NCBI RefSeq assembly: GCF_016127575.1
Contig: NZ_CP066019.1
Coordinates: 60,001-92,000, forward strand
Direction: 5' to 3'
Source: Cupriavidus necator
Lineage (GTDB): Bacteria > Pseudomonadota > Gammaproteobacteria > Burkholderiales > Burkholderiaceae
Length of the DNA: 32,000 nt
In this document: positions 16,796 to 32,000 of the stretch, in pieces
Numbering within the stretch: the first letter of the stretch is position 1
How the letters are laid out: each line of letters begins with the position of its first letter
Position numbers and translations under genes: made by a program
The notes under the pieces: generated by a model
The model's input: only the letters and a program-made list of their open reading frames with translations
Told to the model about the DNA's origin: nothing
The model's database searches: none

Positions 16796-17095
16796 TAGGG
16801 CTTGTGATCATTCGGGGTTAACCGGGATGCGGCCGGCGTTTTCGCTGGAAAGCCCTGCCGGCGAGCAAAAAGGGACAGAAACATGCCGTCTGGGGCACTT
16901 CAAGCATGGATGGCGGCCGTCGTACCGTGGGTGAGCTCCGGTGGGGCAGGCATGTAATGTTGTAGGACAACGTAAGTCGGAGTGGTTTCTGCCAGCGCGC
17001 CTGCCACTCAGGAAATTTGAAACACCCATGCAAAGCTGCCGGTGCACGGGCCCCCGGCGACTGGCACACTGGCATCCTGGACTGACGGGGAGAAC

Positions 17096-18076
17096 ATGGT
17101 GGGAGAGTTACAGGCCTTGCTGGAAAACCACGGGCTGATGCTGGTGTTCCTGAACGTGCTGGTCGAGCAGGCCGGGCTGCCGGTGCCGGCCTACCCGATG
17201 CTGTTCGTCGCCGGCGCGCTGGGCATGCAGGAGACCGGGCCGTCGATCGGCGCGGTGCTGGCTGCGGTGATCTTTGCCTGCCTGATTGCCGATACCGGCT
17301 GGTACTTCGCCGGGCGCCGGCTGGGGCAGCCGATGCTGCGCACGATCTGCCGGGTATCGATTTCGCAGGACTCGTGCATCCGCCAGACCCAGTCGCTCTA
17401 CCTGCGCGTGGGGCCGCGCTCGCTGGTGATCGCCAAGCTGCTGCCCGGTGCCGGGGCCTTGTCCACCGCGATGGCGGGCATGACCGGCACGCCGTTGCCG
17501 GTGTTCCTGTTCTATGACGCCATCGGCGCGCTGGTCTGGGCTGGCAGCGCCTTGCTGATCGGCGTGGTGTTCAGTGATTTTATCGATGCCATCCTGGAGG
17601 CGTTCAGCGCCTACGGGCATATGGCCGTGGTGGGGCTGTTGGTGGCGTTCGCGCTGTTCCTGGCGTGGCGCTGGTGGCGCCGCTTCCGGCTGCTGCGCCG
17701 CACGCGGCGCGTGCCGCGCATGACGGTGGATGAGCTGGAAGCGCGCCGGCTCGCCGGCAGCCTGCCGGTGGTGATCGACGTGCGCGCCCACGGGGACACG
17801 CCGATGGAGCGCATCCCCGGCTCGGTGGTGCTCGACATGCAGGGCGCGCTGGACAGCCTGGACGCGTTAGGCGTGCCGCACGCCGGGGCCGACATCGTGG
17901 TCTATTGCGCCTGCCCCAATGAACTGTCCGCCGCGCTGCTGGCCGAGCGCCTGCGCGTGGCCGGCTACCCGAAGACCTGGGCGCTGGCCGGCGGCTTCGA
18001 CGAATGGAAGCGGCGCCACGGCGGCACCGCCCCGACCGAGGCGGCCAACCAGCCAGGGCCGGCCGAAGCCGCCTGA
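17096..18076 (+). CDS. DedA/VTT-family membrane protein fused to a C-terminal rhodanese domain
   Basis: 326 aa from ATG 17096 with SD GGGGAG. The N-terminal part is DedA-like: LVFLNVLVEQAGLPVPAYPMLFVAGAL...ADTGWYFAGRRLG...RSLVIAKLLPG. A TM helix and an RRFRLLRRTRR linker follow. The rhodanese region is VVIDVRAH...ERIPGSV...IVVYCACPNELSAALLAERLRVAGYP.TWALAGGFDEW, with the active-site-loop Cys at TGC 17906-17908. Confidence 0.8.
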   Translation: MVGELQALLENHGLMLVFLNVLVEQAGLPVPAYPMLFVAGALGMQETGPSIGAVLAAVIFACLIADTGWYFAGRRLGQPMLRTICRVSISQDSCIRQTQSLYLRVGPRSLVIAKLLPGAGALSTAMAGMTGTPLPVFLFYDAIGALVWAGSALLIGVVFSDFIDAILEAFSAYGHMAVVGLLVAFALFLAWRWWRRFRLLRRTRRVPRMTVDELEARRLAGSLPVVIDVRAHGDTPMERIPGSVVLDMQGALDSLDALGVPHAGADIVVYCACPNELSAALLAERLRVAGYPKTWALAGGFDEWKRRHGGTAPTEAANQPGPAEAA

Positions 18077-18101: not shown

Positions 18102-19058
18102 TCAGCGCTTGCCCGCGGTCTGGAATACCGACAGGTCCGGGTAGACCGCGCGGATCTTCTCCCATTCGGCGGCATTGAAGAACTGACACTTGCCGGCGCC
18201 GAAGCGCTTGGACACCTCCACGCAGAAGCGCACGGCTTCAGCGATGTCGATCTCATGGTTGGCCGAGGTCGCGCTGCCCGACACCACCGACCGCGCCGTC
18301 ACCGCCACGCCGACCACCGGCGCCCGGGTGGCCACGTGCGGCTGCATGATGCTGTTGAAGTGGTACAGGCCGTTGTGGTAAGGCGTGATGTCCTGCTGCG
18401 AGATCGGGAAGGTCACCGCCGGGCAGCCGGTGGTGGACTCCATGGTCGCCACCAGGTCCGGCGCCACGCGCAGGATGTAGCCCTGCATCGCCGTCGGCGA
18501 AATCGCAAAGCCGCGGTGCTTGATGATGCTGTTGCCCTTGGAGGCATCGATCGACAGGATCGCGTCCATCTCCGGCAGCACCTGGTAGTCGTTCATGGTG
18601 TCGGACGAGACCGGCATGCCCATGAACGGCACCGGGTCGTGCGGCTGCATCGAGACATTGGTCGACAGGTGCGTGGTCACGATCACGTCGCCCGCCAGGT
18701 GGTCGTCGCGCGCCTTCATCTGCGCCAGCTTGAGCGCCACCGCCAGGCAGCCGATCGGGCCGTCGGCGTCAGACACCAGCCCCACCAGTTCCGGGCGCGC
18801 GCCAATCGCGCCGTTGCGGCCGATCACGCCCAGCGTCGGCGCACTGCCGCCGCTACGCTTGCCCGTGGTGCCGGGGATCACGATGGTGATGAAGTCGGTG
18901 GTGTTGGCCGTGTTCTCGGGCGGGGCGTTGTGGATCGTGGTCACTTCCACGCTCACGCCGGCGCCGGCATAGGGCGCGAACAGTTCGCTGACGACCGCAC
19001 CGTTGGCGTGCGGGCTGTCCAGGGCTTCATGAATGACCAGCGTCTGCTGCAGGGCCAT
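18102..19058 (-). CDS. conserved protein of unknown function (probably DUF1177 family)
   Basis: 318 aa from ATG 19058, with GGAGA 5 nt upstream. The protein is soluble, with no signal peptide or TM helix, and GC3 bias is good. It resembles the roughly 300-aa DUF1177 proteins that I recall co-occurring with OPT transporters. The family name is unverified. Confidence 0.55.
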   Translation of the reverse strand: MALQQTLVIHEALDSPHANGAVVSELFAPYAGAGVSVEVTTIHNAPPENTANTTDFITIVIPGTTGKRSGGSAPTLGVIGRNGAIGARPELVGLVSDADGPIGCLAVALKLAQMKARDDHLAGDVIVTTHLSTNVSMQPHDPVPFMGMPVSSDTMNDYQVLPEMDAILSIDASKGNSIIKHRGFAISPTAMQGYILRVAPDLVATMESTTGCPAVTFPISQQDITPYHNGLYHFNSIMQPHVATRAPVVGVAVTARSVVSGSATSANHEIDIAEAVRFCVEVSKRFGAGKCQFFNAAEWEKIRAVYPDLSVFQTAGKR

Positions 19059-19077
19059 GGCTTTCTCCAAAGGATGT

Positions 19078-19104
19078 GCCATGCCCGCTCGGCGCGGGCA
19101 TGGC
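19078..19104 (-). other. perfect 11-bp stem-loop between the porin and DUF1177 cistrons
   Basis: GCCATGCCCGC-tcggc-GCGGGCATGGC. It begins 13 nt after the porin stop and ends 20 nt before the DUF1177 ATG. No T-tract follows, so it may be an attenuator or mRNA-stability element. Confidence 0.45.
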
Positions 19105-19116
19105 GTCTACGAAAAG

Positions 19117-20277
19117 TCAGAACTGGTGACGCAGGCCGGCCATGACCGTGGTCTGGTTGTCGCGCCCGTCCAGCGGCTTGCCGCTGCCGCCGGTCCAGTT
19201 GGTGGTGTTGTTGCCGAACAGGCCCGACCAGCCGCCGCGCACCCAGTCATAGGCCACCGCCAGGTAGGCATCGGTGCGCTTGCTGAACGCATAGCCGGCC
19301 ACGCCGTATGCCGTGGTGCGGTTGCCGCTGAAGTTGTCGGCGCGGGTGCGGTTGTGCATCATGCTGGCGGTCAGCGTGACGTTGCCCGGGACGGCGTAGT
19401 TGGCGCCCAGCGTGAAGAAGTCGTCGCGCCGGCTGCTGCCGAAGACCGAGTTGATGGCGGCGCGGTTGGTGGCCGTGGCGGCGGTCGACATGCTGGTGAT
19501 GGTGGCCGTGTCGGTGCCGCCCTTCGATGAATCGAAGGCGGCGTCGCGGTCGCTGTAGATGTAGTTGGCAAACAGGTTGGCGCGTCCGACCGCGGCCTTC
19601 AGGCCGGCCATGTAGATGCGCGCGGCGCGGCTCTGGCTGTCGCGGGTCTGCTGGAAGTCGCCGATGGCGGTGATCGGGCCGGCGGCGTACTTCAGGCCCA
19701 GCGACATCGACGAGGTCGCCTTGCTGTTGCCCGGGGTTTCGCCCAGCGCGTATTCGGCGATGACGGACACCGGGCCGAAGTTGCCGGTATAGCTGACGGC
19801 ATTGTCATAGCGCTGGCCGGTCAGGTAAACCATCCAGGAGTTCGACGGCGCCGCGCCCACGCCGAGCGGATCGACGTAGTACAGCATGGTGTTGGCCGTG
19901 GTGTACTGCCGGCCCAGTGCCAGATCGCCCCACTGGTTGCCGATCTTCACGTAGGCCTGGCGCCCGAACAGCTGGCCCTGCTGGTCCAGCCTGCCGGTGT
20001 CGGCCAGGAAGCCGTTTTCCAGCACGAAGCCGGCTTTCACGCCGCCGCCCAGGTCCTCGGTGCCCTTCAGGCCGAAGCGGCTGCCCGACAGGAAGCCTTC
20101 GCCGCCCTGCTGCAGCCCGATCTGGGCATCGCCCGCCGGGTTCGAATGGGTCTGGTAGGTAAGCGCGGTGTCGATCACGCCGTACAGCGTCACCCCGGAC
20201 CGCGCCATCGCGGCGGCCGGCAGGCCCAGCAGCAACGGCAGTGCCAGGCGGGCGGCGTGGCGAATGGTGTGGCTCAT
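19117..20277 (-). CDS. outer-membrane porin (Burkholderiales OmpC-like / Porin_4 type), embedded in the peptide-utilisation cluster
   Basis: 386 aa from ATG 20277 with SD GGAGGAGA. Signal peptide ends ...LPAAAMA/RSG. Motifs present: GVTLYGVIDT, SRFGLKGTEDLGGG and FGRQAYVKIG..WGDLALGRQYT. The C-terminus is ...AGLRHQF. Confidence 0.9.
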   Translation of the reverse strand: MSHTIRHAARLALPLLLGLPAAAMARSGVTLYGVIDTALTYQTHSNPAGDAQIGLQQGGEGFLSGSRFGLKGTEDLGGGVKAGFVLENGFLADTGRLDQQGQLFGRQAYVKIGNQWGDLALGRQYTTANTMLYYVDPLGVGAAPSNSWMVYLTGQRYDNAVSYTGNFGPVSVIAEYALGETPGNSKATSSMSLGLKYAAGPITAIGDFQQTRDSQSRAARIYMAGLKAAVGRANLFANYIYSDRDAAFDSSKGGTDTATITSMSTAATATNRAAINSVFGSSRRDDFFTLGANYAVPGNVTLTASMMHNRTRADNFSGNRTTAYGVAGYAFSKRTDAYLAVAYDWVRGGWSGLFGNNTTNWTGGSGKPLDGRDNQTTVMAGLRHQF

Positions 20278-20411
20278 GTTGTTTTCTCCTCCAAAAGGCA
20301 AAAGGGGGCCCGCGCGGGCGGCACTGCGCGGCCCGCGGGGCGGTTTTCTCTTTGTTGTGCCCGGGACCGGCCCGGGTCAGTGCGTCAGCGGCTCAGGGCA
20401 GTGCCGCCGGC

Positions 20412-21167
20412 TCAGGCAGCAAATCCCGGCCAGTCCTGCATTCCGGCCGGACCGGTGATCTGCGACAGCGGGAAGATCTCGCCCTCGCGAATCGTTTCGA
20501 CCTTGCCTTCGGCCGGAAACCACAGCGCATGGCGCTCGCCCAGCACGGTGCCGCGGGTGCCGTCCGAGAACAGCGCCGAACCCTCCGGCAGCGCAAACAC
20601 CTGCTCCGGCGCGTTGATGTGCAGGAACTCGGCCAGGCGCTCTTCGCGGCTTTCGCCGTTGTGGCCGGCGGGCTTGCCGCTGATGAAGTGCGGGTTGATC
20701 TGGAACGGCACCAGCCCCAGCGCGCGCAGCGACGGCGGCTGCACGATGGGCATGTCGTTGGTGGTGCGGATGGTCGGGCAGGCGACGTTGCTGCCGGCGC
20801 TCCAGCCCACGTATGGCGTGCCCGCGCGCACCCTGGCGCGGATTGCGTCGACGATGCCGGCGTCGTACATGCGCTTGAGCAGCGCAAAGGTGTTGCCGCC
20901 GCCCACCGCGATGGCCTCGGCCTGCTCCACGGCGCGCAGCGGATCGGCGCTGTGGTGGATCGATTCGAGCGCGTAGCCCAGCGTCTCGAACACCGGCTTG
21001 ACCATGCCTTCATAGGTGTCGAAGCTGAAGGTCACGCCGGCGAACGGCACGAACAGCACCTTGCGCGGCTCGCGCCTGAGCAGCGTGTGGATCTGCTCGC
21101 CGGCGTGCTCGAGGTAGCCGAGGTTGTCCTTGCGCGAGCTGCTCATCAGGAGGATGCGTTGGGTCAT
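20412..21167 (-). CDS. pepE: peptidase S51, dipeptidase E-like (alpha-aspartyl dipeptidase)
   Basis: 251 aa. Motifs: ILLMSSS...LEH, AIAVGGGNTFALL, nucleophile elbow YVGWSAGSNVA and FQINPHF (His), as in enteric PepE. It carries about 25 extra residues at the C-terminus. Confidence 0.8.
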   Translation of the reverse strand: MTQRILLMSSSRKDNLGYLEHAGEQIHTLLRREPRKVLFVPFAGVTFSFDTYEGMVKPVFETLGYALESIHHSADPLRAVEQAEAIAVGGGNTFALLKRMYDAGIVDAIRARVRAGTPYVGWSAGSNVACPTIRTTNDMPIVQPPSLRALGLVPFQINPHFISGKPAGHNGESREERLAEFLHINAPEQVFALPEGSALFSDGTRGTVLGERHALWFPAEGKVETIREGEIFPLSQITGPAGMQDWPGFAA

Positions 21168-21211
21168 GTCTTGGTTTCCGTCAGGAGAGTCTGGTGAAGT
21201 TCAATGCGCGA

Positions 21212-22405
21212 TCAGGCGATCGCGGCGCGGATCAGCGCGGCGACGCGGTCGATCTCTTCATGCGTGTTGAAGTAGTGCAGCGAGACGCGCGCCATGGTGG
21301 ACACGCCATGGCGCGCCAGGATGGCGTCGGCCATGAAGTTGCCGGCCTCGATGATGCATTGCTGCGTTTCCAGCGCGGCGACGATGCGCGCCGGGTCCAC
21401 GCCGCGCACATTGAACGGCACGATGCCGATGCGGTTGGCCACGTCGGCCGGGCCGTACAGCTCGAAGCCGGGGGTCGACGAGAACTTCGCCACCGCGTAC
21501 TCGGTCAGGTCGCGCACACGCGCTTCGATGGCGTCGATGCCGATGGCGGCGGCGTAATCGATGGCGGTGCCCATGCCGAGGATCGCCGGCACGATCGGGC
21601 AGCCAGCCTCGAAGCGCCTGGCGCCAGCGACAAGGGACAGCGCGCCCGTGGCACGGTCATAGGCGCCGTTCCACCAGCCCACCAGCGCGGGCTCGACCTG
21701 CTCGATCAGCGCGCGGCGCACATACAGGAAGCCCGAGCCCTCGGTCGCGCGCAGCGCCTTGCGGCCGCAGCCTGCCAGGAAATCGCAGTCCAGCTCGGCC
21801 ACGTCCGAGCGCAGCATGCCCACGCTCTGTGCCGCATTGACCAGCGACAGCACGCCATGGCGGCGCGCCAGCGCGCAGATCTGCGCGGCCGGCTGCACCG
21901 CACCCGTGGAATTGGGCAGGTGCGAGAAGGTGAGCAGGCGCGTGCGCGAGGTCACGGCGGCCTCGAACGCCGCGGGCGACAGCAGTCCTTCGGCATTGGC
22001 CGCGACCATCTTCACGACGATGCCGTGCGATTGCTCCAGCCGGCGCCAGGGCAGCAGGTTGCTCAGCATCTCGGTGTCAGCCACCAGCACTTCGTCACCG
22101 GCCTTCCAGGCGATGCCGCGCGCGACGATCGAGATGCTCTCGGTGGCGTTCTTGGTGAAGGCGACTTCGTCGGCGGCGCAGTTGAGCAGTCCGGCCAGCT
22201 TGCCGCGCACCGCTTCCACGCGCGCATAGGTCTCTTTGCGGAAGGCCGGCAGGTAGATGCCGACGTGGCCGGTATCGAGCAGGTAGCTGCGCACGGTATC
22301 GAGCACCGCGTCGGGCGGCAACGAGGCCGCGGCGGTGTCGAGATAGATGGTGGAGGCCGTCAGCGGGGTGTCGGCGCGGATCGCCTGGATGGCTTGGATA
22401 TCCAT
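21212..22405 (-). CDS. class V aminotransferase-fold PLP enzyme, cysteine-desulfurase-like but lacking the catalytic Cys
   Basis: 397 aa from ATG 22405. FSHLPNSTGAVQP...LVNAAQSVG...LDCDFLAGCGRKAL aligns to SufS HVSNVLGT...DGAQA...LDCDFYVFSGHKLYG, placing the PLP Lys at K216. The C-terminal IIEAGNFMADAIL...ARVSLHYFNTHEEIDRV aligns to SufS VRTGHHCAMPL...CRASLAMYNTHEEVDRL, with Met in place of the Cys. Confidence 0.8.
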   Translation of the reverse strand: MDIQAIQAIRADTPLTASTIYLDTAAASLPPDAVLDTVRSYLLDTGHVGIYLPAFRKETYARVEAVRGKLAGLLNCAADEVAFTKNATESISIVARGIAWKAGDEVLVADTEMLSNLLPWRRLEQSHGIVVKMVAANAEGLLSPAAFEAAVTSRTRLLTFSHLPNSTGAVQPAAQICALARRHGVLSLVNAAQSVGMLRSDVAELDCDFLAGCGRKALRATEGSGFLYVRRALIEQVEPALVGWWNGAYDRATGALSLVAGARRFEAGCPIVPAILGMGTAIDYAAAIGIDAIEARVRDLTEYAVAKFSSTPGFELYGPADVANRIGIVPFNVRGVDPARIVAALETQQCIIEAGNFMADAILARHGVSTMARVSLHYFNTHEEIDRVAALIRAAIA

Positions 22406-22429
22406 GGAACGTCTCGGGTAATGACAGGC

Positions 22430-22450
22430 GGGACGCGGCGACCGCGCCCC
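22430..22450 (-). other. stem-loop between the OPT and PLP-enzyme cistrons
   Basis: GGGACGCGG-cga-CCGCGCCCC forms a 9-bp stem with one A.C mismatch and a 3-nt loop, in the 67-nt spacer. Confidence 0.3.
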
Positions 22451-22472
22451 GAGGTAAGACTCAGTTGCGCAC

Positions 22473-24080
22473 TTACTTGCGCAGCTTGGTGACGGAGCCG
22501 AAGAAGCTGAACAGGGCGTCGCCGGCAATCACGCCGCCGGCGAAGGCGCTCATCTCGGCCACGTGCTTGTCGCCGCGCAGGCGCTGCAGCACGAAGCGGA
22601 TCGCGAGGCCTGCCAGCACTGCCCAGCCGGCCAGCGGCGAGGCAATCAGCATGCCGGTGGAGAGCAGGATGCCAAGCTGGCGCCTGGAGCCGCCGATCAG
22701 CTGCAGCAGCGCGCCGGGGATGGCCCAGATCACCAGGTTGCGGGCAATCTCCGCCGACGAGCCCGCCTTGATCGAGGCCGCGTAGACGCGGTCCACCGGC
22801 GGGATCATGTTCTGCGCGAAGAAGGTGCCGTGGAACACCAGCACTACCATCGCGGCCACGGCAAAGCCGATCATCGCGGCCAGGAACTGCTGCTTGCGCC
22901 CGGCCAGCTCGGCCTCCATGTCGCGGCCTTCGCCGCGCAGCAGGTAGCCGGTCTTGAGGTCGTAGCCCATGTCGGCAAAGGCCGGGCCGGTGGCGGCGGA
23001 GAAACCCACCAGCACCGCCAGCGCCGTCGGCGGGAAGCCGATCAGGATGCCGATGGTCAGCGTGATCAGCGCTACCGCGAAGGCCGGGAACCAGCCCGAA
23101 TGCATCGCCGCGATGCCGACGATCAGCTCATGCACATAGGCGGCAAAGGCGGCATAGAGCACGAACACCACCAGCATGCCCAGCGACATGTCCGAGACAT
23201 GGCCGGCCAGCACCGAGATCAGCAGCGCAATCGCCAGGTAGATCAGGAAGCCGCCCGACAGGATGCGGCTGGCGCGCGAGGCCGGGACTTCGATGGTGCA
23301 CGTGTCCGCGGCCGGGGCATGGCGCGCGCGGCGGATCTCATTGGCGACCTGGAACAGCGCGACGATGCCCGCGCCGATCATCAGCCCGTGCGGGATATAG
23401 GCCTTGGCGATGTCGATGCCGGTCAGCGCCACCGAATAGCCGCGCACCAGCAGGCCAATGCCGAACATGGTCAGTGCCGCCAGGTTGCCCAGGAAGGCCG
23501 CGCCGAACGCGGACATCGGCACGCCCAGCCAGGCGCCGCCCACGCCCACGGCAATGCCCAGCCCCAGGAACGCGGCCTTGCGCCCGCCGCGGTCGCCAGC
23601 CCAGATGGCCTCGGCCGTGGCGATGCCGGCCGGCCAGGTGCCGGTGGCGGGAAAGATCCTGCTGCCGAAGAGGAAGTACAGCATGGCGCCGTCAACGAAC
23701 ATGGCGATCACCGCGCCGATCAGCATCGGCGTGGCCAGTTCCGGCATGCCCATCGCGTATGGCACGCCGATCGGGATCATCAGCGAGTTGGCGGCGCCGA
23801 AGGTGGCCGACGAGATTGCCGTCTGCACCAGGTTCTGCCGCTCCAGCACGCGGAAGCGCCGCGTGATCTCCAGCGGGATGCGCGAGAACACGATCGCGAT
23901 CAGCGCGCCGATGATCGAGGTGTTGGCCGAGATCCCCAGCGACACGATCAGCTGCATGCCGATCATGGCGCCGAACACCGACAGCCCCACGGAGACCAGC
24001 AGCAGCAAGGGCTCCATGAAGCGTGTCCGTGTTGCAGGCTGCGCCGCCATCGGCGCGTTCAGTTGTGTTGGCATGGTCAT
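22473..24080 (-). CDS. OPT-superfamily oligopeptide transporter (inner membrane)
   Basis: 535 aa. The protein is Gly-rich and polytopic, with roughly 14 hydrophobic helices spanning its whole length. It resembles bacterial OPT/YSL-type transporters, a call made from memory. SD GGGGAG lies upstream of ATG 24080. Confidence 0.65.
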   Translation of the reverse strand: MTMPTQLNAPMAAQPATRTRFMEPLLLLVSVGLSVFGAMIGMQLIVSLGISANTSIIGALIAIVFSRIPLEITRRFRVLERQNLVQTAISSATFGAANSLMIPIGVPYAMGMPELATPMLIGAVIAMFVDGAMLYFLFGSRIFPATGTWPAGIATAEAIWAGDRGGRKAAFLGLGIAVGVGGAWLGVPMSAFGAAFLGNLAALTMFGIGLLVRGYSVALTGIDIAKAYIPHGLMIGAGIVALFQVANEIRRARHAPAADTCTIEVPASRASRILSGGFLIYLAIALLISVLAGHVSDMSLGMLVVFVLYAAFAAYVHELIVGIAAMHSGWFPAFAVALITLTIGILIGFPPTALAVLVGFSAATGPAFADMGYDLKTGYLLRGEGRDMEAELAGRKQQFLAAMIGFAVAAMVVLVFHGTFFAQNMIPPVDRVYAASIKAGSSAEIARNLVIWAIPGALLQLIGGSRRQLGILLSTGMLIASPLAGWAVLAGLAIRFVLQRLRGDKHVAEMSAFAGGVIAGDALFSFFGSVTKLRK

Positions 24081-24143
24081 TTGTCCACTGCTCCCCGTAG
24101 TGTTGTCTGGTTTTGTCTGTTGTATGTGATGCCTTGCGCGCGC

Positions 24144-24857
24144 TCAGCGCATGAAACCCGCCACCGGGCCGATGGTGTTGCGCGCGGTGCGCAGCGCCTC
24201 CAGCAAGCGCGGCACAGCTTCAGGCGTCAGGCGCTGCAGCGGGCCGGCGATGGCCAGCGATCCCACCACCGCCCGGGTGTCGCGGTGGCGCAGCGGCAGC
24301 GCCAGCCCGGCCACCGTGGCGGCGGATTCCTCGCAGGTGTAGGCCCAGCCGTCGGCGCGGATCTGCGCCAGCCGTGCTTCCGGCTCGGGCGCGTCGCCCG
24401 TTACCTGGCGCCGGAACGCTTCCGGCTGGAATGCCAGGATGGCCTTGGCGTGCGCGCCCGCGTCCAGCGAGAAGCGCTGGCCCACTTCGATCGAAAAGCG
24501 CAGCTGGTGCTGGCTCTGGGCGATATCCGTGCACAAGCCCTCGCCACCGTCCAGCCACGACAGGAACACGGTCTCGCCGCATTCGCGCGCCAGCGCTTCC
24601 AGCGCCGGTTGCACCACCTCGGCCGGCGAAAACGTCTTGCGCATCACTTGTCCCAGCTCGAACCAGCGCAACCCCAGGCCGTAGCGGCCAAGCGCGTCCT
24701 GCACCAGGAAGCCGTTGGCGGCAAAGGTCGCCAGCGCGCGGTGCACCACGGCGTGGTGCACGCCGCTGTAGCGCGCCAGTTCGCGCACGCCCCAGCTGGG
24801 CTGGCGGGCGGTGAAGTGGGTCAACAGCGCCAGGGCGCCGTCCAGGGTCTTGAGCAT
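24144..24857 (-). CDS. IclR-family transcriptional regulator (copy 1)
   Basis: 237 aa. N-terminal wHTH LKTLDGALALLTHFTARQPSWGVRELARYSGVHHAVVHRALATFAANGFLVQD plus an IclR effector domain (GETVFLSWLDG...RFSIEVGQRFSLDAGAHAKAILAF...VAGLALPL...SLAIAGP). It is about 75% identical in protein sequence to copy 2. Confidence 0.9.
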   Translation of the reverse strand: MLKTLDGALALLTHFTARQPSWGVRELARYSGVHHAVVHRALATFAANGFLVQDALGRYGLGLRWFELGQVMRKTFSPAEVVQPALEALARECGETVFLSWLDGGEGLCTDIAQSQHQLRFSIEVGQRFSLDAGAHAKAILAFQPEAFRRQVTGDAPEPEARLAQIRADGWAYTCEESAATVAGLALPLRHRDTRAVVGSLAIAGPLQRLTPEAVPRLLEALRTARNTIGPVAGFMR

Positions 24858-24882: not shown

Positions 24883-24919
24883 TGTCTCTATATAAGAGAC
24901 AGCGTCTCTGATACAGAGA
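24883..24919. promoter_or_regulatory. two adjacent inverted repeats sharing GTCTCT/AGAGAC half-sites (candidate IclR operator)
   Basis: IR1 is TGTCTCT-atata-AGAGACA (24883-24901). IR2 is TCTCTG-ata-CAGAGA (24905-24919). They sit in an AT-rich patch 26-62 bp upstream of the IclR-1 ATG, in the spacer shared with the divergent patatin-like gene. Confidence 0.45.
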
Positions 24920-25060
24920 AATGCTAGGCTTGGTCCCGGCTCTCAACAATCAGGGTTAACGTGGGGCCGGCTGGCCGCGCCGGGCGAATGCCGGCGGCGG
25001 CAACGGCGGAGCGCCGCCGCCTATACTTGGCGCAGACCGACTGTTACCGGGAGGACGCGC

Positions 25061-27838
25061 ATGGCCGCGGAACACCACGGAACCGGCGGATCCGGCGACG
25101 AGGCCACCCGCATCGCCCAGCGCCGCCGCCAGCTCGGCATTGCGCCGCGCGCCGGCGATGGCCAGCGCAACTGGGCCCTGGCACTGTCCGGCGGCGGCAT
25201 CCGCAGCGCCACCTTCTGCCTGGGCGTGATGCAGGCGATGGCGGGCACCGCGATGCCCGCCAAGGCGGCAGCGCCGGCCCCCGCGCCGGAAGCCGCGACG
25301 CCGGCGGCCGCCGCCGCGGCGCAGACCGTGCCGGGCCTGGCCTCGCTGCTGGCGCAGTTCGACTACCTCTCCACCGTCAGCGGCGGCGGCTACCTCGGCG
25401 CCTTCTTCGTCAGCCTGTTCGTGCCCGGCCGCCTGCGTCGGGGCGCGGGCCCGGTCCAGGCCGCCACCGACGCCTATCACACGCTGCAATGCGAGCCGCC
25501 GGGGCGCATCCATACCTCGGTGTCCTATGCCGCGGACCCCGGCCGCGGCGCGGTCGCATGGCTGCGCGAGAACGGCCGCTACCTGTCGCCCACCGGTGCC
25601 GGCGACAACCTCTATGCCGCCGCGCTGGTGGTGCGCAACTGGCTGGCCATGCATTTCGTGATCGGCAGCGCGCTGCTGGTGCTGCTGGCTGTGCTGGCGC
25701 TCGGGCAACACATCGCGGTGGGGGTTTCCTACGGATTGGGGCGCTATGAGATGGACCTGCTGCACGACGCGCGCCAGGCCTTCAACCAGGGCGAATGCGC
25801 GATCTGGTGGAGCACGCTGCTGTGGCTGCCGCTGGCCACCGCGCTGGCTGGCGCGGTGCCGCCCGGGCTGGCCTACTGGCTGATCTACCCGCGCGCCAAC
25901 GATCCGCAGGCGACGGCCCGCTTCCTGAGCCCCGCGCCGCTGCTCGCCACGCTGCTGGGCCTGATGCTGCTGGCCGCGGCGCGCTGGTCGGAATGGCTCG
26001 GTCCGGGGCTGGTCATCGGCAAGCTCTTTGCCGCGCTGGGCGTGCTGACGCTGCTAGGTGTGCTGTGGTGCCTGGCGCTGCTGCAGGGCGAGCCGCGCAC
26101 CGTGGCCGCCTACCGCGTGCGCGCCACGCGCGCACTGCGTGGCGCGCTGACGCTGACCCTGTGGCTGGCGGCGCTGGGCATTGCCGACACCATCGCACGC
26201 ACCGCTTACCTGTTTGCCCACCAGGCCCACCACCAGTGGGGCGCGGCGCTGCCCGCAACCGTGCTGGGCGTGCTGGTCTGGCTGGTGCGCTACGGTTCGC
26301 GCTGGCGCGACGCCGGCCGCCAGGGCAGCACCGACACGCCATGGCGCGCGCTGTGTGCCCGGCTGCCGGTATCGCTGCTGGCGGGCGCGGTGGCGGCGGT
26401 GCTGGCCCTGCTGCTGTTCGTGCTGTGGTCGTGGCTGGTGCTGTGGGTGCGCTGGGACGGGCGCGAGCCGGTCGACTGGCTGGTGTTCGGCAACGCCTAT
26501 ACCGGCCCGGCGCTGGCCACGTTCACTGTGGTGAGCCTGGTGCTGGCGCTGGTGGCGGGGCGCTTCTCCGGCTTCCTGAACCTGTCGACGCTGCAGCCGT
26601 TCTACGCGGCGCGGCTCACGCGCGCGTTCCTGGGCGCATCCAACGGGGAGCGCTTCGCGGCTCCCGACCCGAGTGCCGGCCGCGACGGCAGCCAGCGCGC
26701 CCGCTTCAGCGTGGCCGAGCCCGTGCCCGGCGACCAGCTCAGCCTGAACACCTACTACGATCCGCGCGTGCTGGCGCCGCTGCACCTGATCAACGTCACG
26801 CTGAATCTCACCGTCGACCCGGCCGAGCAACTGGTGCAGCGCGACCGCAAGGGCAAGCCGCTGTGCCTGGCGCCCGGCCCCTGCGTGGTGCTGTCCGGCG
26901 TGGCGGCGGCGATCCCGCCGGACGCCTACGCGCGCTTTACCATCGACGGCCGGGGTTGCTGCCCCGACGTTTCATGGCCGTCTTCGGGCAAACTGGCCGA
27001 ATCGCGCACGGTGGGAGATTGGATGGCGATCTCGGGCGCGGCCGTCTCCACCAGGCTGGGGCGCGCGACCACGCTGGGCACATCCATGCTGCTTGGCCTG
27101 GCGAACCTGCGTCTGGGCATATGGTGGCCGTCGTATCCGGCCAGCCACGCGCGCGAAGGCGGGCGCCGGGGCCGCGCGCGGCGCCATCCGGAACGCGCCG
27201 CGCATCCATGGCTGGCCGCGGGCATCGCGCTTTTCCGCACGCAGTACTACCTGGGCTGCGAACTGAGCGCGCGCTTCCACGGCACGCGGCGCGGCTGGCA
27301 GTACCTGTCCGATGGCGGGCATTTCGACAACACCGGCGTGTACGAGCTGCTGCGCCCGGGCCGCGATGTCTCGCTGATCGTGCTGTGTGATTGCGGGGGC
27401 GACCCCGACTACCGCTTCGGCGACCTGGCCAACCTGATCCGGCTGGCGCGCATCGACCATGGGCTGGAGATCGTGGTCGATACCGAGGCTGCCACCACGC
27501 ACCCGGTGCTGAGCCGTGTCTTCGGCGTGCCGGATGATTTCCTGCCGGGCGCGCCGACCGGCGACAAATGCGCGGTGCTGCTCAATGTCTTTCGCACCGG
27601 CCCGGAGTGCGGGGCGCCACGCGCACGCACCTGCCGCATCGTGCTGCTCAAGCCGCGGCTGGTGTCATGGGCGCCGGCCGACGTGCGCCACTACGGCGCG
27701 ACCCATCCCGCGTTTCCGCAGGAGGCCACCGGCGACCAGTTCTTCGATGAGGCGCAATGGGAGAGCTATCGCGCGCTGGGCCATGCGATCGGCCAGCGCG
27801 TGCTGGGCGGGGCCGTGGGCAAGGCGCTGCTGGTGTGA
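25061..27838 (+). CDS. patatin/cPLA2-like phospholipase with a polytopic membrane domain inserted between the catalytic Ser and Asp
   Basis: 925 aa, with SD GGGAGG 6 nt upstream of the ATG. Oxyanion motif SGGGIRS at aa 43-49. Nucleophile elbow TVSGG with Ser107 (AGC 25379-25381). About 8 hydrophobic helices at aa ~186-500. Catalytic Asp motif LSDGGHFDNTG with Asp751 (GAT 27311-27313), then LLRPGRDVSLIVLCDCGGD. The C-terminus carries FPQEATGDQFFDEAQWESYRALG. Confidence 0.8.
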   Translation: MAAEHHGTGGSGDEATRIAQRRRQLGIAPRAGDGQRNWALALSGGGIRSATFCLGVMQAMAGTAMPAKAAAPAPAPEAATPAAAAAAQTVPGLASLLAQFDYLSTVSGGGYLGAFFVSLFVPGRLRRGAGPVQAATDAYHTLQCEPPGRIHTSVSYAADPGRGAVAWLRENGRYLSPTGAGDNLYAAALVVRNWLAMHFVIGSALLVLLAVLALGQHIAVGVSYGLGRYEMDLLHDARQAFNQGECAIWWSTLLWLPLATALAGAVPPGLAYWLIYPRANDPQATARFLSPAPLLATLLGLMLLAAARWSEWLGPGLVIGKLFAALGVLTLLGVLWCLALLQGEPRTVAAYRVRATRALRGALTLTLWLAALGIADTIARTAYLFAHQAHHQWGAALPATVLGVLVWLVRYGSRWRDAGRQGSTDTPWRALCARLPVSLLAGAVAAVLALLLFVLWSWLVLWVRWDGREPVDWLVFGNAYTGPALATFTVVSLVLALVAGRFSGFLNLSTLQPFYAARLTRAFLGASNGERFAAPDPSAGRDGSQRARFSVAEPVPGDQLSLNTYYDPRVLAPLHLINVTLNLTVDPAEQLVQRDRKGKPLCLAPGPCVVLSGVAAAIPPDAYARFTIDGRGCCPDVSWPSSGKLAESRTVGDWMAISGAAVSTRLGRATTLGTSMLLGLANLRLGIWWPSYPASHAREGGRRGRARRHPERAAHPWLAAGIALFRTQYYLGCELSARFHGTRRGWQYLSDGGHFDNTGVYELLRPGRDVSLIVLCDCGGDPDYRFGDLANLIRLARIDHGLEIVVDTEAATTHPVLSRVFGVPDDFLPGAPTGDKCAVLLNVFRTGPECGAPRARTCRIVLLKPRLVSWAPADVRHYGATHPAFPQEATGDQFFDEAQWESYRALGHAIGQRVLGGAVGKALLV

Positions 27839-27850
27839 AGAGACAGCGCG

Positions 27851-28606
27851 TCAGCGCACGAAGCCGATGACGTCTTCCAGCCGGCCGCTGGCATCGCGCA
27901 GCGCCTCCAGCAGGCGCGGTACCGCGGCTTGGTCCAGCCGCTGCTGCGGCCCGGCGATGGCGACCGAGCCCACCACCGCGCTGCGGTCGCGCGACCACAG
28001 CGGCAACGCCAGGCCGGCCACGCTGGCGGCGGCTTCCTCGCGCGTATGGGCCCAGCCGCGCTCGCGCACCTCGGCCAGCTGCTGCTCGATGCGCTCGCGG
28101 TCCAGCGTCGTGTGTGGGGCGATGCGCGCCAGCCCCTGGCGGTAGACCTCATCGCGGAAGGCATCGTCCTGGAAGGCCAGCATCGCCTTGGCATGCGCGC
28201 CCGCATAGAGCGGGAAGCGCTCGCCCAGCTCGATCGAAAAGCGCAGCTGGTGCTGGCTCTGCACCAGTCCCACGCACAGGCCCTCATGGCCATCGAGCCA
28301 CGACAGGAACACGGTCTCGCCGCTTTGCGCGGCGAGCTTTTCCAGCACCGGGCGCACGATCTCGTCGGGCGAGAAGCTCTTGCGCACCACCTGTCCCAGC
28401 TCGAACAACCGCAGTCCCAGCGAATACTTGCCGGTGGCCGCGTCCTGCACCAGGAAGCCATTGGCGGCAAACGTCGCCAGCACGCGGTGCACCACGGCGT
28501 AGTGCACGCCGCTGTGCTTGGCCAGCTCGCGCACGCCCCAGGTCGGCTGGCGCACGGTGAAGTGCGTCAGCAGGGCCAGCGCACCGTCCAGTGTCTTGAG
28601 TGTCAT
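27851..28606 (-). CDS. IclR-family transcriptional regulator (copy 2)
   Basis: 251 aa from ATG 28606 with an AAGGA SD. MTLKTLDGALALLTHFTVRQPTWGVRELAKHSGVHYAVVHRVLATFAANGFLVQD... It shares exact 32-nt and 28-nt DNA runs with copy 1. It is divergent from the LLM oxidoreductase gene. Confidence 0.9.
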   Translation of the reverse strand: MTLKTLDGALALLTHFTVRQPTWGVRELAKHSGVHYAVVHRVLATFAANGFLVQDAATGKYSLGLRLFELGQVVRKSFSPDEIVRPVLEKLAAQSGETVFLSWLDGHEGLCVGLVQSQHQLRFSIELGERFPLYAGAHAKAMLAFQDDAFRDEVYRQGLARIAPHTTLDRERIEQQLAEVRERGWAHTREEAAASVAGLALPLWSRDRSAVVGSVAIAGPQQRLDQAAVPRLLEALRDASGRLEDVIGFVR

Positions 28607-28797
28607 CGCTTGTTCCTTGGCATCGGGCTGCATGGTACGGGCAAGCGCGGCGCGACTCAATCCTTCCCGCGCCCCCGTGATACCCACGCCGCCCGAAGGG
28701 CCGCGATCAGGCCGCCAGCACGATCGCGCCATGGTCTCTAAGATAGCGGGCCATACGCATTGCCCGCGTGCGGCATCGGTCGCCCGCCATCCACCAC

Positions 28798-30054: not shown

Positions 30055-32000
30055 ATGGACCTGCGGCAACGCGAGCACATCGAGACGGTGGTCCAGGTCA
30101 CCACATACCTTGCCCCGCCGGCCGTGCTTGCGGACCGGATCGCGCACGACGCCATCATCCAGAACTCATGGCGCCGCTGCGTGCACCAGTACGGCCTGGA
30201 TCCGTCGCGCATGCAGGAGGCGCGCATCCTGCCGCAGCCGCGCCTGCGCGAACACCAGGAACGCATCGACGACTTCGCGCGCATCGCGCGCCACGGCCTG
30301 CAGAGCCTGTATGGGCAAGTGGCGGGCCTGGGCTATGTGGTGCTGCTGACCGATGCGCAGGGCGTGACCGTCGACTATATCGGCGAGGCCCGCAGCGATG
30401 CCGCGCTGCGCCACGCGGGCCTGTACCTGGGCGCCGAGTGGAGCGAGAGCGGCGCCGGCACCTGCGCGGTCGGCACCGCCCTGGCCACGGGCCAGGCGCT
30501 GACGGTGCACCAGGCCGACCATTTCGACGCCACCCATATCCCACTGACCTGCACCGCCGCGCCGCTGTTCGACACGCACGGCAACCTGCACGCCATCCTC
30601 GACATCTCCGCGCTGACCTCGCCGCAGGCCAAGGACAGCCAGGGGCTGGCGCTGCAGATGGTGCGCATCTACGCCGCGCATATCGAGAACGCCAACTTCC
30701 TGCGCGCGCACCGCCGCGACTGGATCCTGAAGCTGAACGTGGCGCCGGAGTTCGTCGACGTCAATCCCGAATACCTGCTGGCGCTGGACGAGGCGGGCCG
30801 CATCGTCGGCCATAACCACCGCGCCAGGCTGATGCTGGAAGGCGAGCTGGGTGGCGCACCGGGCGCCACCGTGCTGGGCCAGCGGTTCGAGACGCTGTTC
30901 GACGCGCGCCTGGAGGACCTGGGCCACTATGTCTATTCGCGCCCGAGCGAGCAGCGCCTGGTGGCGCTGACCCGCAGTGGCGGCCTGCTGTACCTGAGCG
31001 TGCTGCCGCCCGCGCTGCGCTGGCAGGCGCCGCCCGCCGAAACGCAGGTGGCGATGCCGGATGCCCTGGCGGCGCTGACCGGCGGCGATGCCGCGCTGCA
31101 GCTGCAGTTGCAGCGCGCGGCGCGCCTGGTCGATTCGCCGATCAACCTGCTGATCCACGGCGAGACCGGCAGCGGCAAGGAGTTCCTGGCCAAGGCGCTG
31201 CATCTTGCCAGCGCGCGCCGCGGCGGGCCGTTCGTAGCGGTGAACTGCGCGGCGATCCCTGAAACACTGATTGAAAGCGAATTGTTCGGGCACCTGCCCA
31301 ACAGCTTCTCCGGCGCAGGCCCGCGCGGCAAGCGCGGCCTGATCCAGGAGGCCGACGGCGGCACGCTGTTCCTGGACGAGATCGGCGACATGCCGCGCGA
31401 GCTGCAGTCGCGGCTGCTGCGCGTGCTGGCCGAGGGCGAAGTGCTGCCTGTTGGCGCCGCGCGGCCGGTGCCGGTGCGGCTGCGGGTCATTTCCGCCACG
31501 CACCACAGCCTGGAGCAACTGGTGGCCGACGGGCGCTTCCGCGAGGACCTGTACTACCGCCTCAACGGCGCGCGCTTTACGCTGCCGCCGCTGCGTGCGC
31601 GTACCGACCTGGACTGGCTGGTCCGCAAGCTGCTGCAGGAAGGGAGCGCAGAGGGCAGCGAGATCACGCTGTCGCCCGCGGCACGCGAGCGGCTGCACCG
31701 CCACCGCTGGCCTGGCAACCTGCGCGAACTGCGCAACGTGCTGGAGTACGCGCGCGCGGTCTGCGCCGACGGCTATATCGATGTGCCGGACCTGCCTGAC
31801 AGCCTGGCGGGACCCGCACCGTCCGCCGCCCTGCCGCAGCCAGGGCCCGCCCAGTCACCCGCTGCCGCACCGTTCGACCCGCACCAGTTGCCGCCGGAAG
31901 GCATGCTGCTGATGCAATACCTGCGCGCGTCCGGCTGGAACCTGAGCGCCGTGGCGCGGCAGATCGGCGTCAGCCGCATGACGCTGTACCGGCGCATGGA
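30055..32000 (+). CDS. acoR: sigma54-dependent transcriptional activator, AcoR-type (GAF-like sensor + AAA+ + Fis HTH); 3' end off-window
   Basis: The ORF is open from ATG 30055 (SD AGGAGA, 5-nt spacer) to the window end. It has no in-window stop, which is why it is absent from the ORF track. Motifs: Walker A GETGSGKE, ESELFGH, Walker B GGTLFLDEIGD, RFREDLYYRL, WPGNLRELRN, and C-terminal HTH SAVARQIGVSRMTLYRRM. Confidence 0.9.
   Translation, partial: MDLRQREHIETVVQVTTYLAPPAVLADRIAHDAIIQNSWRRCVHQYGLDPSRMQEARILPQPRLREHQERIDDFARIARHGLQSLYGQVAGLGYVVLLTDAQGVTVDYIGEARSDAALRHAGLYLGAEWSESGAGTCAVGTALATGQALTVHQADHFDATHIPLTCTAAPLFDTHGNLHAILDISALTSPQAKDSQGLALQMVRIYAAHIENANFLRAHRRDWILKLNVAPEFVDVNPEYLLALDEAGRIVGHNHRARLMLEGELGGAPGATVLGQRFETLFDARLEDLGHYVYSRPSEQRLVALTRSGGLLYLSVLPPALRWQAPPAETQVAMPDALAALTGGDAALQLQLQRAARLVDSPINLLIHGETGSGKEFLAKALHLASARRGGPFVAVNCAAIPETLIESELFGHLPNSFSGAGPRGKRGLIQEADGGTLFLDEIGDMPRELQSRLLRVLAEGEVLPVGAARPVPVRLRVISATHHSLEQLVADGRFREDLYYRLNGARFTLPPLRARTDLDWLVRKLLQEGSAEGSEITLSPAARERLHRHRWPGNLRELRNVLEYARAVCADGYIDVPDLPDSLAGPAPSAALPQPGPAQSPAAAPFDPHQLPPEGMLLMQYLRASGWNLSAVARQIGVSRMTLYRRM

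Follow-up and report, generated by a model that had tools for sequence, protein, structure and literature searches.

We analyzed a window of 32,000 nucleotides from Cupriavidus necator (RefSeq assembly GCF_016127575.1, contig NZ_CP066019.1, positions 60,001 to 92,000 of the forward strand); all coordinates below are positions within this window. The open reading frame (ORF) at 25061..27838 on the forward strand is a real gene. Our results support assigning its product, as a remote member nearer to the cPLA2/phospholipase B branch, to the patatin/cPLA2 superfamily of lipases, here in integral-membrane form. Two soluble lobes, aa ~36-185 and 506-925, bear the three catalytic signatures, and a domain of eight predicted transmembrane (TM) helices is nested between them. 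We favor, with moderate confidence, the reading that this lipase is a stand-alone phospholipase A/lysophospholipase of the inner membrane, with a cytoplasmic Ser107-Asp751 site that serves turnover or remodeling of inner-leaflet glycerolipids.

The ORF is a complete coding sequence whose translation gives 925 aa plus a stop, and the Shine-Dalgarno sequence GGGAGGA (25049..25055, +) lies 5 nt ahead of its ATG and is kept in four Cupriavidus species. GC content at the three codon positions is 0.73/0.55/0.90, and real neighboring genes have third-position GC content (GC3) of 0.86-0.92, in a window of ~0.68-0.74 GC overall. An earlier note, made from the sequence alone, had described a single 925-aa gene with a strong ribosome-binding site, and this description held.

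An AlphaFold2 model of the lipase, built on 87 homologs, had a mean predicted local distance difference test (pLDDT) score of 88.1, with high values in both lobes, and a predicted template modeling score of 0.88. Secondary structure assigned to this model with DSSP followed the canonical patatin order: strand 37-43, GGG, and a helix; strand 102-105, Ser107, and helix 108-118; and strand 746-750 with Asp751. The first signature, S43-G-G-G-I-R48-S (25187..25207, +), lies between strand 37-43 and helix 46-62 and is predicted to provide the oxyanion-hole glycines and phosphate-binding Arg, matching the superfamily's GGGxR motif right after the first strand. The second is the nucleophile elbow T105-V-S107-G-G (25373..25387, +), set between a strand and a helix as expected of a Ser elbow, with Thr in place of the first Gly of GxSxG and Ser107 as the probable nucleophile. 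The third is the catalytic Asp block at aa 748-781 (27302..27403, +), reading Y-L-S-D751-G-G-H754-F-x-N ... LLRPxRxVxLIVxCDxGxD, where D751-G-G follows its strand as in the superfamily and L-S-D751-G-G-H-F-D-N-T-G continues into LLRPGRDVSLIVLCDCGGD.

Several further elements surround these signatures. An Ala/Pro low-complexity linker, which the earlier note had also recognized, occupies aa 64-92 (25250..25336, +) between helix A and the nucleophile strand, with a pLDDT of ~62 and column conservation of only 0.19. Ahead of the first strand, an N-terminal helix at aa 11-25 (25091..25135, +; pLDDT ~91) carries the pattern E14-x2-R17-x3-R21-R22, whose residues are at least 90% conserved, and may have a regulatory or head-group-binding role. 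In the C-terminal lobe, the basic loop Q593-R-D-R-K-G-K-P600 (26837..26860, +) is conserved to at least 90% and could bind anionic head groups. The region that follows, aa 601-745, is partly helical and variable. The protein ends with a C-terminal signature at aa 885-907 (27713..27781, +), recognized from the sequence and its conservation, with the consensus FPQExTxDQFFDEAQWESYRxLG (FPQEATGDQFFDEAQWESYRALG in the query). All of the motifs quoted in the earlier note, namely SGGGIRS at aa 43-49, TVSGG with Ser107, LSDGGH with Asp751, and FPQEATGDQFFDEAQWESYRALG, were found at the residues it had named.

The catalytic residues were nearly invariant across an alignment of 248 family sequences. Asp751 was present in 247, Gly752 and Gly753 in all 248, and His754 in 245; Gly44, Gly46, and Arg48 were each present in 245, and Ser107 in 237. 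Outside the three signatures, Arg518 and Arg521 were retained in 247 of 248, and E901, R904, L906, and G907 were invariant in the homolog alignment. This degree of conservation goes far beyond chance and effectively refutes the idea that the ORF is an artifact or its product a scaffold without catalytic activity. That idea draws on the query having no Pfam match and on a few homologs with degenerate motifs, such as P0040, but it is opposed by the near-invariance of the catalytic motifs, by the strong coding signal, and by the existence of thousands of full-length homologs. P0040 itself (864 aa, 52% identical) has the degraded motifs SGKGVRG, TVGSGG, and ARRGRRGKP for SGGGIRS, TVSGGG, and QRDRKGKP, together with an intact LSDGGHFDNT, and may be an inactivated or re-purposed paralog. 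A second copy at ~50% identity occurs in some Cupriavidus (P0041, P0043; H4).

Profile searches placed the lipase near the Patatin family. The full query protein matched nothing in Pfam, NCBIfam, or PADLOC even at E ≤ 1, and PDB sequences returned only noise with either phmmer of the protein or hmmsearch of the 87-sequence family profile. After removal of the linker and TM domain, the query matched positions 1-47 of the Patatin profile (PF01734) at E 1.3e-4 with 22.7 bits, below the Pfam gathering threshold of 27.7 bits. Removing the linker also gives a cPLA2-like spacing. When four full-length homologs were compared with the Patatin hidden Markov model (HMM), three scored 25.9-27.0 bits and P0113 alone passed the threshold (28.0 bits). 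The alignment was limited to profile positions 1 to ~50 in five of the six proteins scanned singly and covered 2-92 in P0061. Among 18 family members with the TM domain deleted, 17 matched Patatin at E ≤ 1 through the N-terminal block (best E 3.6e-7), and PLA2_B (PF01735) was never significant (5 of 18, best E 0.039). Of the two Pfam families that the earlier note had pointed to, Patatin was recovered near threshold for the N-terminal block only, and not for the untrimmed query, and PLA2_B never reached significance.

Structural comparison ranked cPLA2 first. A Foldseek search of the full model against the PDB returned human cPLA2-alpha (1cjy_A) as the top match (probability 1.00, E 3.9e-3, 426 columns), followed by cPLA2-delta, with patatin and CapV appearing only at E ~1-3. 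The C-terminal half modeled alone (pLDDT 80.6) again had 1cjy_A as its top match, at probability 0.92 and E 1.8e-2. The weaker match without the N-terminal lobe implies that both lobes contribute to the similarity. In viral structure space (BFVD), Foldseek found nothing.

Profile-profile alignment with hhalign also matched the lipase to cPLA2. We used a profile of the 248 family sequences with TM domain and linker removed, and the cPLA2-alpha sequence used in the comparison was checked against 1cjy (749 of 749 residues aligned, one mismatch). In the first aligned block, SGGGIR...YLSTVSG fell on cPLA2 SGGGFR...YVAGLSG (P 0.0096), placing SGGGIR on cPLA2 residues 195-200, Arg48 on Arg200, and Ser107 on Ser228. 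In the second, seen in two runs, DGGHFxN..LLRPxRxVxLIVxCD fell on cPLA2 DSGLTFN..ILRPQRGVDLIISFD, placing Asp751 on Asp549 (P 0.021). Both blocks are short, and they are co-linear and in register with cPLA2. All of the homology evidence is thus consistent with, if remote support for, membership in the patatin/cPLA2 superfamily of Ser-Asp acyl hydrolases. The earlier preference for a cPLA2-like enzyme over the short patatins found support in the top rank of 1cjy_A in both Foldseek runs, albeit at E-values above 1e-3.

We next consider the membrane domain, which the earlier note had put at about eight helices between the Ser and Asp motifs. The inserted domain spans aa 186-505 (25616..26575, +), as delimited by hydropathy and AlphaFold2 helices. 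Kyte-Doolittle hydropathy gave seven above-threshold segments within aa 196-502, and AlphaFold2 predicted helices at 180-222, 252-274, 291-313, 318-341, 348-388, 392-419, 437-464, and 481-501, along with a non-hydrophobic helix at 224-242. Together these indicate eight TM helices at approximately 196-216, 252-274, 291-313, 318-341, 361-385, 392-415, 437-464, and 481-501, of which TM5 and TM6 are only moderately hydrophobic. All eight hydrophobic segments were free of gaps in 87 of 87 aligned homologs, confirming the proposed domain.

The distribution of basic residues across the family orients this domain in the membrane. Combined Lys and Arg density was 0.13, 0.20, and 0.20 in loops 2-3, 4-5, and 6-7, versus 0.04-0.07 in loops 1-2, 3-4, 5-6, and 7-8. 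The region N-terminal of TM1, which averages ~193 residues and is without a signal peptide, had a density of 0.11. This alternation across the family implies that both termini, and with them the two catalytic lobes, are cytoplasmic (N-in/C-in).

Conservation, scored as the frequency of the commonest residue in 75 sequences that share less than 60% identity with the query, was distributed unevenly over the protein. Conserved segments of the catalytic lobes (aa 36-64, 96-185, 506-600, and 651-925) scored 0.62-0.79, the TM region 0.43, and the periplasmic loops 0.18-0.33. The highest mean of all segments, 0.83, belonged to the junction after TM8 (aa 502-530). This junction, with its interfacial helix at 512-527, joins TM8 to the catalytic domain and reads NLSTLQxxYxARLTRAYLGASNG over aa 506-530 (26576..26650, +). 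Well-conserved residues of the insert lie at the cytoplasmic rim, comprising R192/N193/W194 before TM1 and R352/V353/T356/R357 before TM5, and the membrane core of the insert holds no conserved polar residues. We read the TM bundle as a probable anchor and scaffold, whose cytoplasmic rim may, together with helix 512-527, shape the path by which lipids enter the active site.

The insert begins 79 residues past Ser107 and ends 245 residues ahead of Asp751. Subtracting it leaves a Ser-to-Asp interval of 324 residues, versus 321 in cPLA2-alpha, which suggests that the membrane domain was added to an interval of cPLA2 length and did not replace the cap. The cPLA2 cap or lid reportedly occupies about residues 370-548, as Dessen et al. 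are said to have described in 1999. A cap-like soluble region may accordingly persist in the lipase with the TM domain as an extra insertion, and the earlier suggestion that a membrane module stands in the position of the cap is probably wrong.

Eight helices exceed what an anchor needs, so we considered whether the TM domain might itself handle lipids, as a flippase or scramblase that delivers outer-leaflet lysolipids to the cytoplasmic lipase by a logic like that of LplT-Aas. The moderate hydrophobicity of TM5 and TM6 and the conserved Arg, Asn, and Trp lining the cytoplasmic rim are compatible with such a role, as is the ancestral upstream neighbor in Cupriavidus, a DedA/VTT protein, whose family has been linked to lipid translocation. 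However, the periplasmic loops and the membrane core show the lowest conservation in the protein, polar residues are not conserved within the membrane, and the DedA adjacency is specific to the genus. No membrane protein in the PDB matched the TM bundle, the best Foldseek probability being 0.41, and with no probability above that value for any transporter or scramblase structure, a known transporter fold was rejected for this domain. We consider active lipid transport by the TM domain very unlikely. A related proposal, that the nested bundle forms a gate or conduit through which lipids of the bilayer, perhaps of the opposite leaflet, reach the cytoplasmic Ser-Asp site, is somewhat easier to entertain and still doubtful.

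Under the favored reading of an inner-membrane phospholipase, the two lobes would fold into a single alpha/beta domain in which Asp751 activates Ser107 for attack on an sn-acyl ester. The backbone of G44-G46 would stabilize the oxyanion and Arg48 would hold the phosphate. The TM bundle would dock the active site permanently at the inner leaflet, with the conserved rim (R192/N193/W194, R352/T356/R357, and helix 506-530) forming a portal through which membrane lipid reaches the catalytic center. The physiological role would be to turn over or remodel glycerolipids of the cell's own membrane, such as by clearing lysophospholipids or damaged lipids.

The same fold and chemistry would also serve a membrane-bound acyltransferase or transacylase that takes an acyl chain from one membrane lipid as an acyl-enzyme and transfers it to another. 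cPLA2-epsilon and several PNPLAs act as transacylases, and an enzyme embedded in the bilayer would have donor and acceptor close at hand. In two lineages the neighbors of the gene include a PlsC-like acyltransferase and a CDP-alcohol phosphatidyltransferase, but these neighbors are not conserved. We identified no acceptor-binding feature, and sequence cannot separate transfer from hydrolysis. On this evidence we regard transacylation as the unlikely outcome of the shared chemistry.

The lipase belongs to a large family. At least 2887 homologs were found, the best being from Cupriavidus sp. KK10 at 97% identity. A phmmer search against 1.84 billion representatives gave 10,823 clusters (50% identity) at E ≤ 1e-3 and 1,749 at E ≤ 1e-30, and the best 150 clusters were nearly all 860-1090 aa long, fragments aside. 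Scanning one genome per species for the C-terminal signature pattern recovered at least 592 loci in at least 592 species. The matches listed include Burkholderiales, Pseudomonas, Sphingomonadaceae, Verrucomicrobiota, Acidobacteriota, Planctomycetota, and one member of the Enterobacteriaceae. Relatives in Rhizobium and Azospirillum, at 28-30% identity and lengths of 837 and 1020 aa, retain the full plan, with SGGGIRSA, STVSGGGY, 7-9 hydrophobic segments, DGGHxEN, and FPHExTxDQxF.EEQFE.YR.LG.

Homologs are named "patatin-like phospholipase family protein", "PNPLA domain-containing protein", or "hypothetical protein" in their sources, mostly the last, and no Pfam, NCBIfam, or PADLOC model is dedicated to the family. 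Full-text searches of a limited library, in which absence is not proof, found neither an account of a patatin/cPLA2 enzyme whose catalytic domain holds a nested polytopic domain nor any work on this lipase family, in line with the earlier note, which likewise knew of no characterized member. The enzyme class was already known from homolog names; the nested-membrane architecture appears to be new, and the function is predicted.

Identity among Cupriavidus species ranges from 97% down to 63%. This gradient, together with the location on a chromid, native GC3, conserved flanks, and a conserved motif close upstream of the gene, argues for vertical inheritance. The gene therefore looks vertically inherited and not like the cargo of a defense island, and we rejected recent horizontal acquisition or a defense island on the basis of GC3, synteny, and the identity gradient. 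The earlier inference of native codon usage and improbable recent transfer agrees with these results.

In the window the lipase gene is monocistronic, divergent from an IclR regulator (24144-24857, -) and convergent with a second IclR gene (27851-28732, -), with a luciferase-like monooxygenase and a sigma-54 activator farther downstream. In the compared C. necator and C. metallidurans assemblies, the ortholog is preceded on the same strand by a DedA-rhodanese gene and followed by the same monooxygenase. The window also encodes this DedA/VTT-domain and rhodanese membrane protein (17042..18076, +), which lies 7 kb from the lipase here and directly upstream of it in three Cupriavidus assemblies. 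It is 87.5% identical to the C. necator gene located 123 bp upstream of the lipase ortholog. A survey of homologs and their neighborhoods, which the earlier note had suggested, extended this comparison to 84 loci, where ORF clustering revealed no neighbor common beyond Cupriavidus. The monooxygenase occurred in 13 loci and the DedA-rhodanese gene in 4, both limited to the genus. Elsewhere the neighbors were varied and included MFS and EamA transporters, NAD synthase, CusB, a PlsC-like acyltransferase, a CDP-alcohol phosphatidyltransferase, and other lipases. The last three, like DedA, belong to lipid metabolism and lend some support to the lipid-turnover reading. In one Acidobacteria metagenome-assembled genome (L041, 4196-9560), three lipase-type genes follow one another on one strand, encoding a soluble patatin, the TM-split homolog, and a protein with a Tle1-like phospholipase domain. 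The upstream patatin is 573 aa long, matches the full Patatin HMM at E 4.6e-10, and has N-terminal motifs resembling those of the lipase family (hhalign E 2.7e-5).

These neighborhoods also bear on the proposal, raised in the earlier note, that the lipase destroys its own membrane. As a single-gene effector of abortive infection or stress suicide, it would be held inactive in the membrane until phage or envelope damage triggers it to degrade the inner membrane of its own cell. Lipases of the patatin type often serve as suicide effectors, as exemplified by CapV in the cyclic oligonucleotide-based antiphage signaling system CBASS (PMC12480259). In further favor of the proposal, the distribution of the family over phyla is patchy, some form of gating would be needed for a lipase docked permanently in the membrane, and two loci have conflict-type neighbors. 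In Candidatus Accumulibacter (L004, 11576-15360) the homolog adjoins an EAD8-NACHT-FGE-sulfatase protein and a DUF4160/DUF2442 pair in an arrangement resembling a conflict system, and in Metapseudomonas otitidis (L023) a bpMoxR ATPase lies downstream. However, PADLOC gave 0 matches for the lipase, its neighbors in the window are metabolic genes and regulators, and no sensor domain is recognizable. No partner or defense gene recurred in the 84 loci, and the periplasmic loops are unconserved. The gene is moreover syntenic and apparently core across Cupriavidus with native codon usage, and nothing resembling it appeared in viral structure space. Taken together, these results did not bear out the suicide proposal, which we judge unlikely, and phage-triggered suicide is less likely than a role in lipid turnover.

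The intergenic region contains a putative promoter. The 45 bp ahead of the ATG are conserved in four Cupriavidus species despite differing upstream genes, which suggests that the lipase gene has its own promoter. Within this segment, the block CCTATACTTGGC (25020..25031, +), ~30-40 nt upstream of the ATG, is invariant in the four species and contains TATACT, a candidate -10 element with no recognizable -35. A sigma-70 consensus scan found no full site, and Rfam found nothing in the whole window or the lipase 5' region, offering no clue to a riboswitch. Two near-perfect palindromes, TGTCTCT-ATATA-AGAGACA (24883-24901) and TCTCTG-ATA-CAGAGA (24905-24919), occupy 24883..24919 in the divergent intergenic region beside the IclR start. 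Both are kept in C. lacunae and absent upstream in C. necator and C. metallidurans. They are probably operators of the adjacent IclR regulator, placed in a promoter region shared with the lipase.

Between the DedA-rhodanese gene and the lipase, a block of ~7 kb on the reverse strand (18102..24857) encodes DUF1177, a porin, peptidase S51, a class-V aminotransferase, an OPT transporter, and the divergent IclR, as assigned by Pfam, and forms context to the lipase and no part of it. Neither C. necator nor C. metallidurans has it at this site. It looks like an inserted peptide-utilization cassette, and 3-5 loci, that of C. lacunae among them, carry portions of it upstream. The second IclR gene (27851-28732, -), located between the lipase and the monooxygenase, is also absent there in both species. 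A hairpin resembling a terminator has its stem at 27846-27859, and its tail repeats the word TGTCTCTT. Farther downstream, an activator with GAF, sigma-54-interaction, and HTH_8 domains (30055-32000, +) continues past the end of the window and is syntenic with C. necator at 92% identity.

Comparison with known systems clarifies what sets the lipase apart. Foldseek ranks cPLA2 (PLA2G4A, 1CJY) first among solved structures, ahead of the short patatins. The two enzymes, like PLA2_B more broadly, have the Ser-Asp dyad, predicted for the lipase, in common, with Arg48/Arg200, Ser107/Ser228, and Asp751/Asp549 aligned, and cPLA2 and the lipase share the block D-x-G...N...LRPxRxVxLI..D. In contrast to cPLA2, the lipase has no C2 domain and gains eight inserted TM helices and an Ala/Pro linker; cPLA2 is recruited by Ca2+, whereas the bacterial lipase appears permanently integrated into the membrane. 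With the Patatin/PNPLA family (PF01734; Pat17, ExoU, CapV, and RssA) it shares the three signature blocks GGGxR, Ser elbow, and DGG. It is two to three times longer than these proteins, a polytopic membrane domain interrupts its catalytic domain, and Thr replaces their first Gly of GxSxG. CapV-type anti-phage lipases differ in that the lipase has neither a match to a defense model nor a recurring partner gene.

Other patatin-type lipases are also coupled to a membrane-spanning module. PNPLA6/NTE is a patatin-type lipase with an N-terminal TM helix. A patatin-like protein of Ralstonia eutropha, reportedly associated with polyhydroxybutyrate granules, was also considered as a counterpart and judged unlikely, an 8-TM inner-membrane protein being improbable on a granule. 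PlpD, a type Vd patatin-type lipase, has a C-terminal beta-barrel (PMC11116518), as does FplA (PMC5724010). PNPLA6/NTE, PlpD, and FplA resemble the lipase in this coupling, but each places the membrane module at one end of an intact catalytic domain, whereas that of the lipase is nested inside, alpha-helical, and polytopic, with the catalytic part facing the cytoplasm. A looser analogy is provided by the apolipoprotein N-acyltransferase Lnt, an integral inner-membrane lipid-acyl enzyme with 8 TM helices and a nitrilase-like domain (PMC5500890). Lnt also combines ~8 TM helices with a soluble catalytic fold that takes its substrate laterally from the bilayer, as we propose for the lipase. The likeness is one of analogy only, as fold and chemistry are unrelated, the nesting is reversed (a soluble domain inside the TM domain), and the catalytic domain of Lnt is periplasmic.

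Several observations weigh against reading the protein as an inner-membrane phospholipase with a Ser107-Asp751 dyad. The query reaches no HMM at its curated threshold. Although cPLA2 ranked first for both models, all structural E-values exceeded 1e-3, and TM-scores were 0.20-0.36 with a root-mean-square deviation of ~11 Å to cPLA2, such that the comparison envisaged in the earlier note succeeded in rank and fell short in significance. Assignment of the C-terminal lobe leans on one short sequence block and the Foldseek ranking. As to the nucleophile, Ser104 is more conserved than Ser107 (247 versus 237 of 248; aa 104-107, window 25370-25381), and Gly takes the place of Ser107 in 10 of the 248 members, five of which have Ser at 108. 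Ser107 is still the probable nucleophile despite stricter conservation of Ser104, since it fits the elbow geometry and the cPLA2 register. The lipid-related neighbors are anecdotal, and the patchy spread across phyla fits an accessory or conflict role as well. Lastly, an unregulated phospholipase at the inner leaflet would be toxic, which implies that narrow specificity or regulation must exist; we identified neither.

Patatin/cPLA2-type phospholipases are normally soluble, and membrane recruitment is their means of control. Here, a very large Gram-negative family spanning several phyla has its catalytic domain built around a polytopic membrane domain, with an active site predicted to face the inner leaflet of the cell itself. 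If the enzyme is active, how it stays harmless and which lipid serves as its substrate become key questions. Should the nested bundle turn out to be a gate or conduit, the family would form a hitherto unrecognized class of integral-membrane cPLA2-like enzymes, and the protein would be a self-contained, switchable machine for degrading or remodeling inner-membrane lipids, in envelope-stress repair or controlled self-lysis. With a TM bundle enclosed in a catalytic alpha/beta fold, it is also an attractive structural target. Carried by C. necator, C. metallidurans, and P. protegens, the family offers a tractable entry to inner-membrane lipid turnover in non-enteric bacteria.

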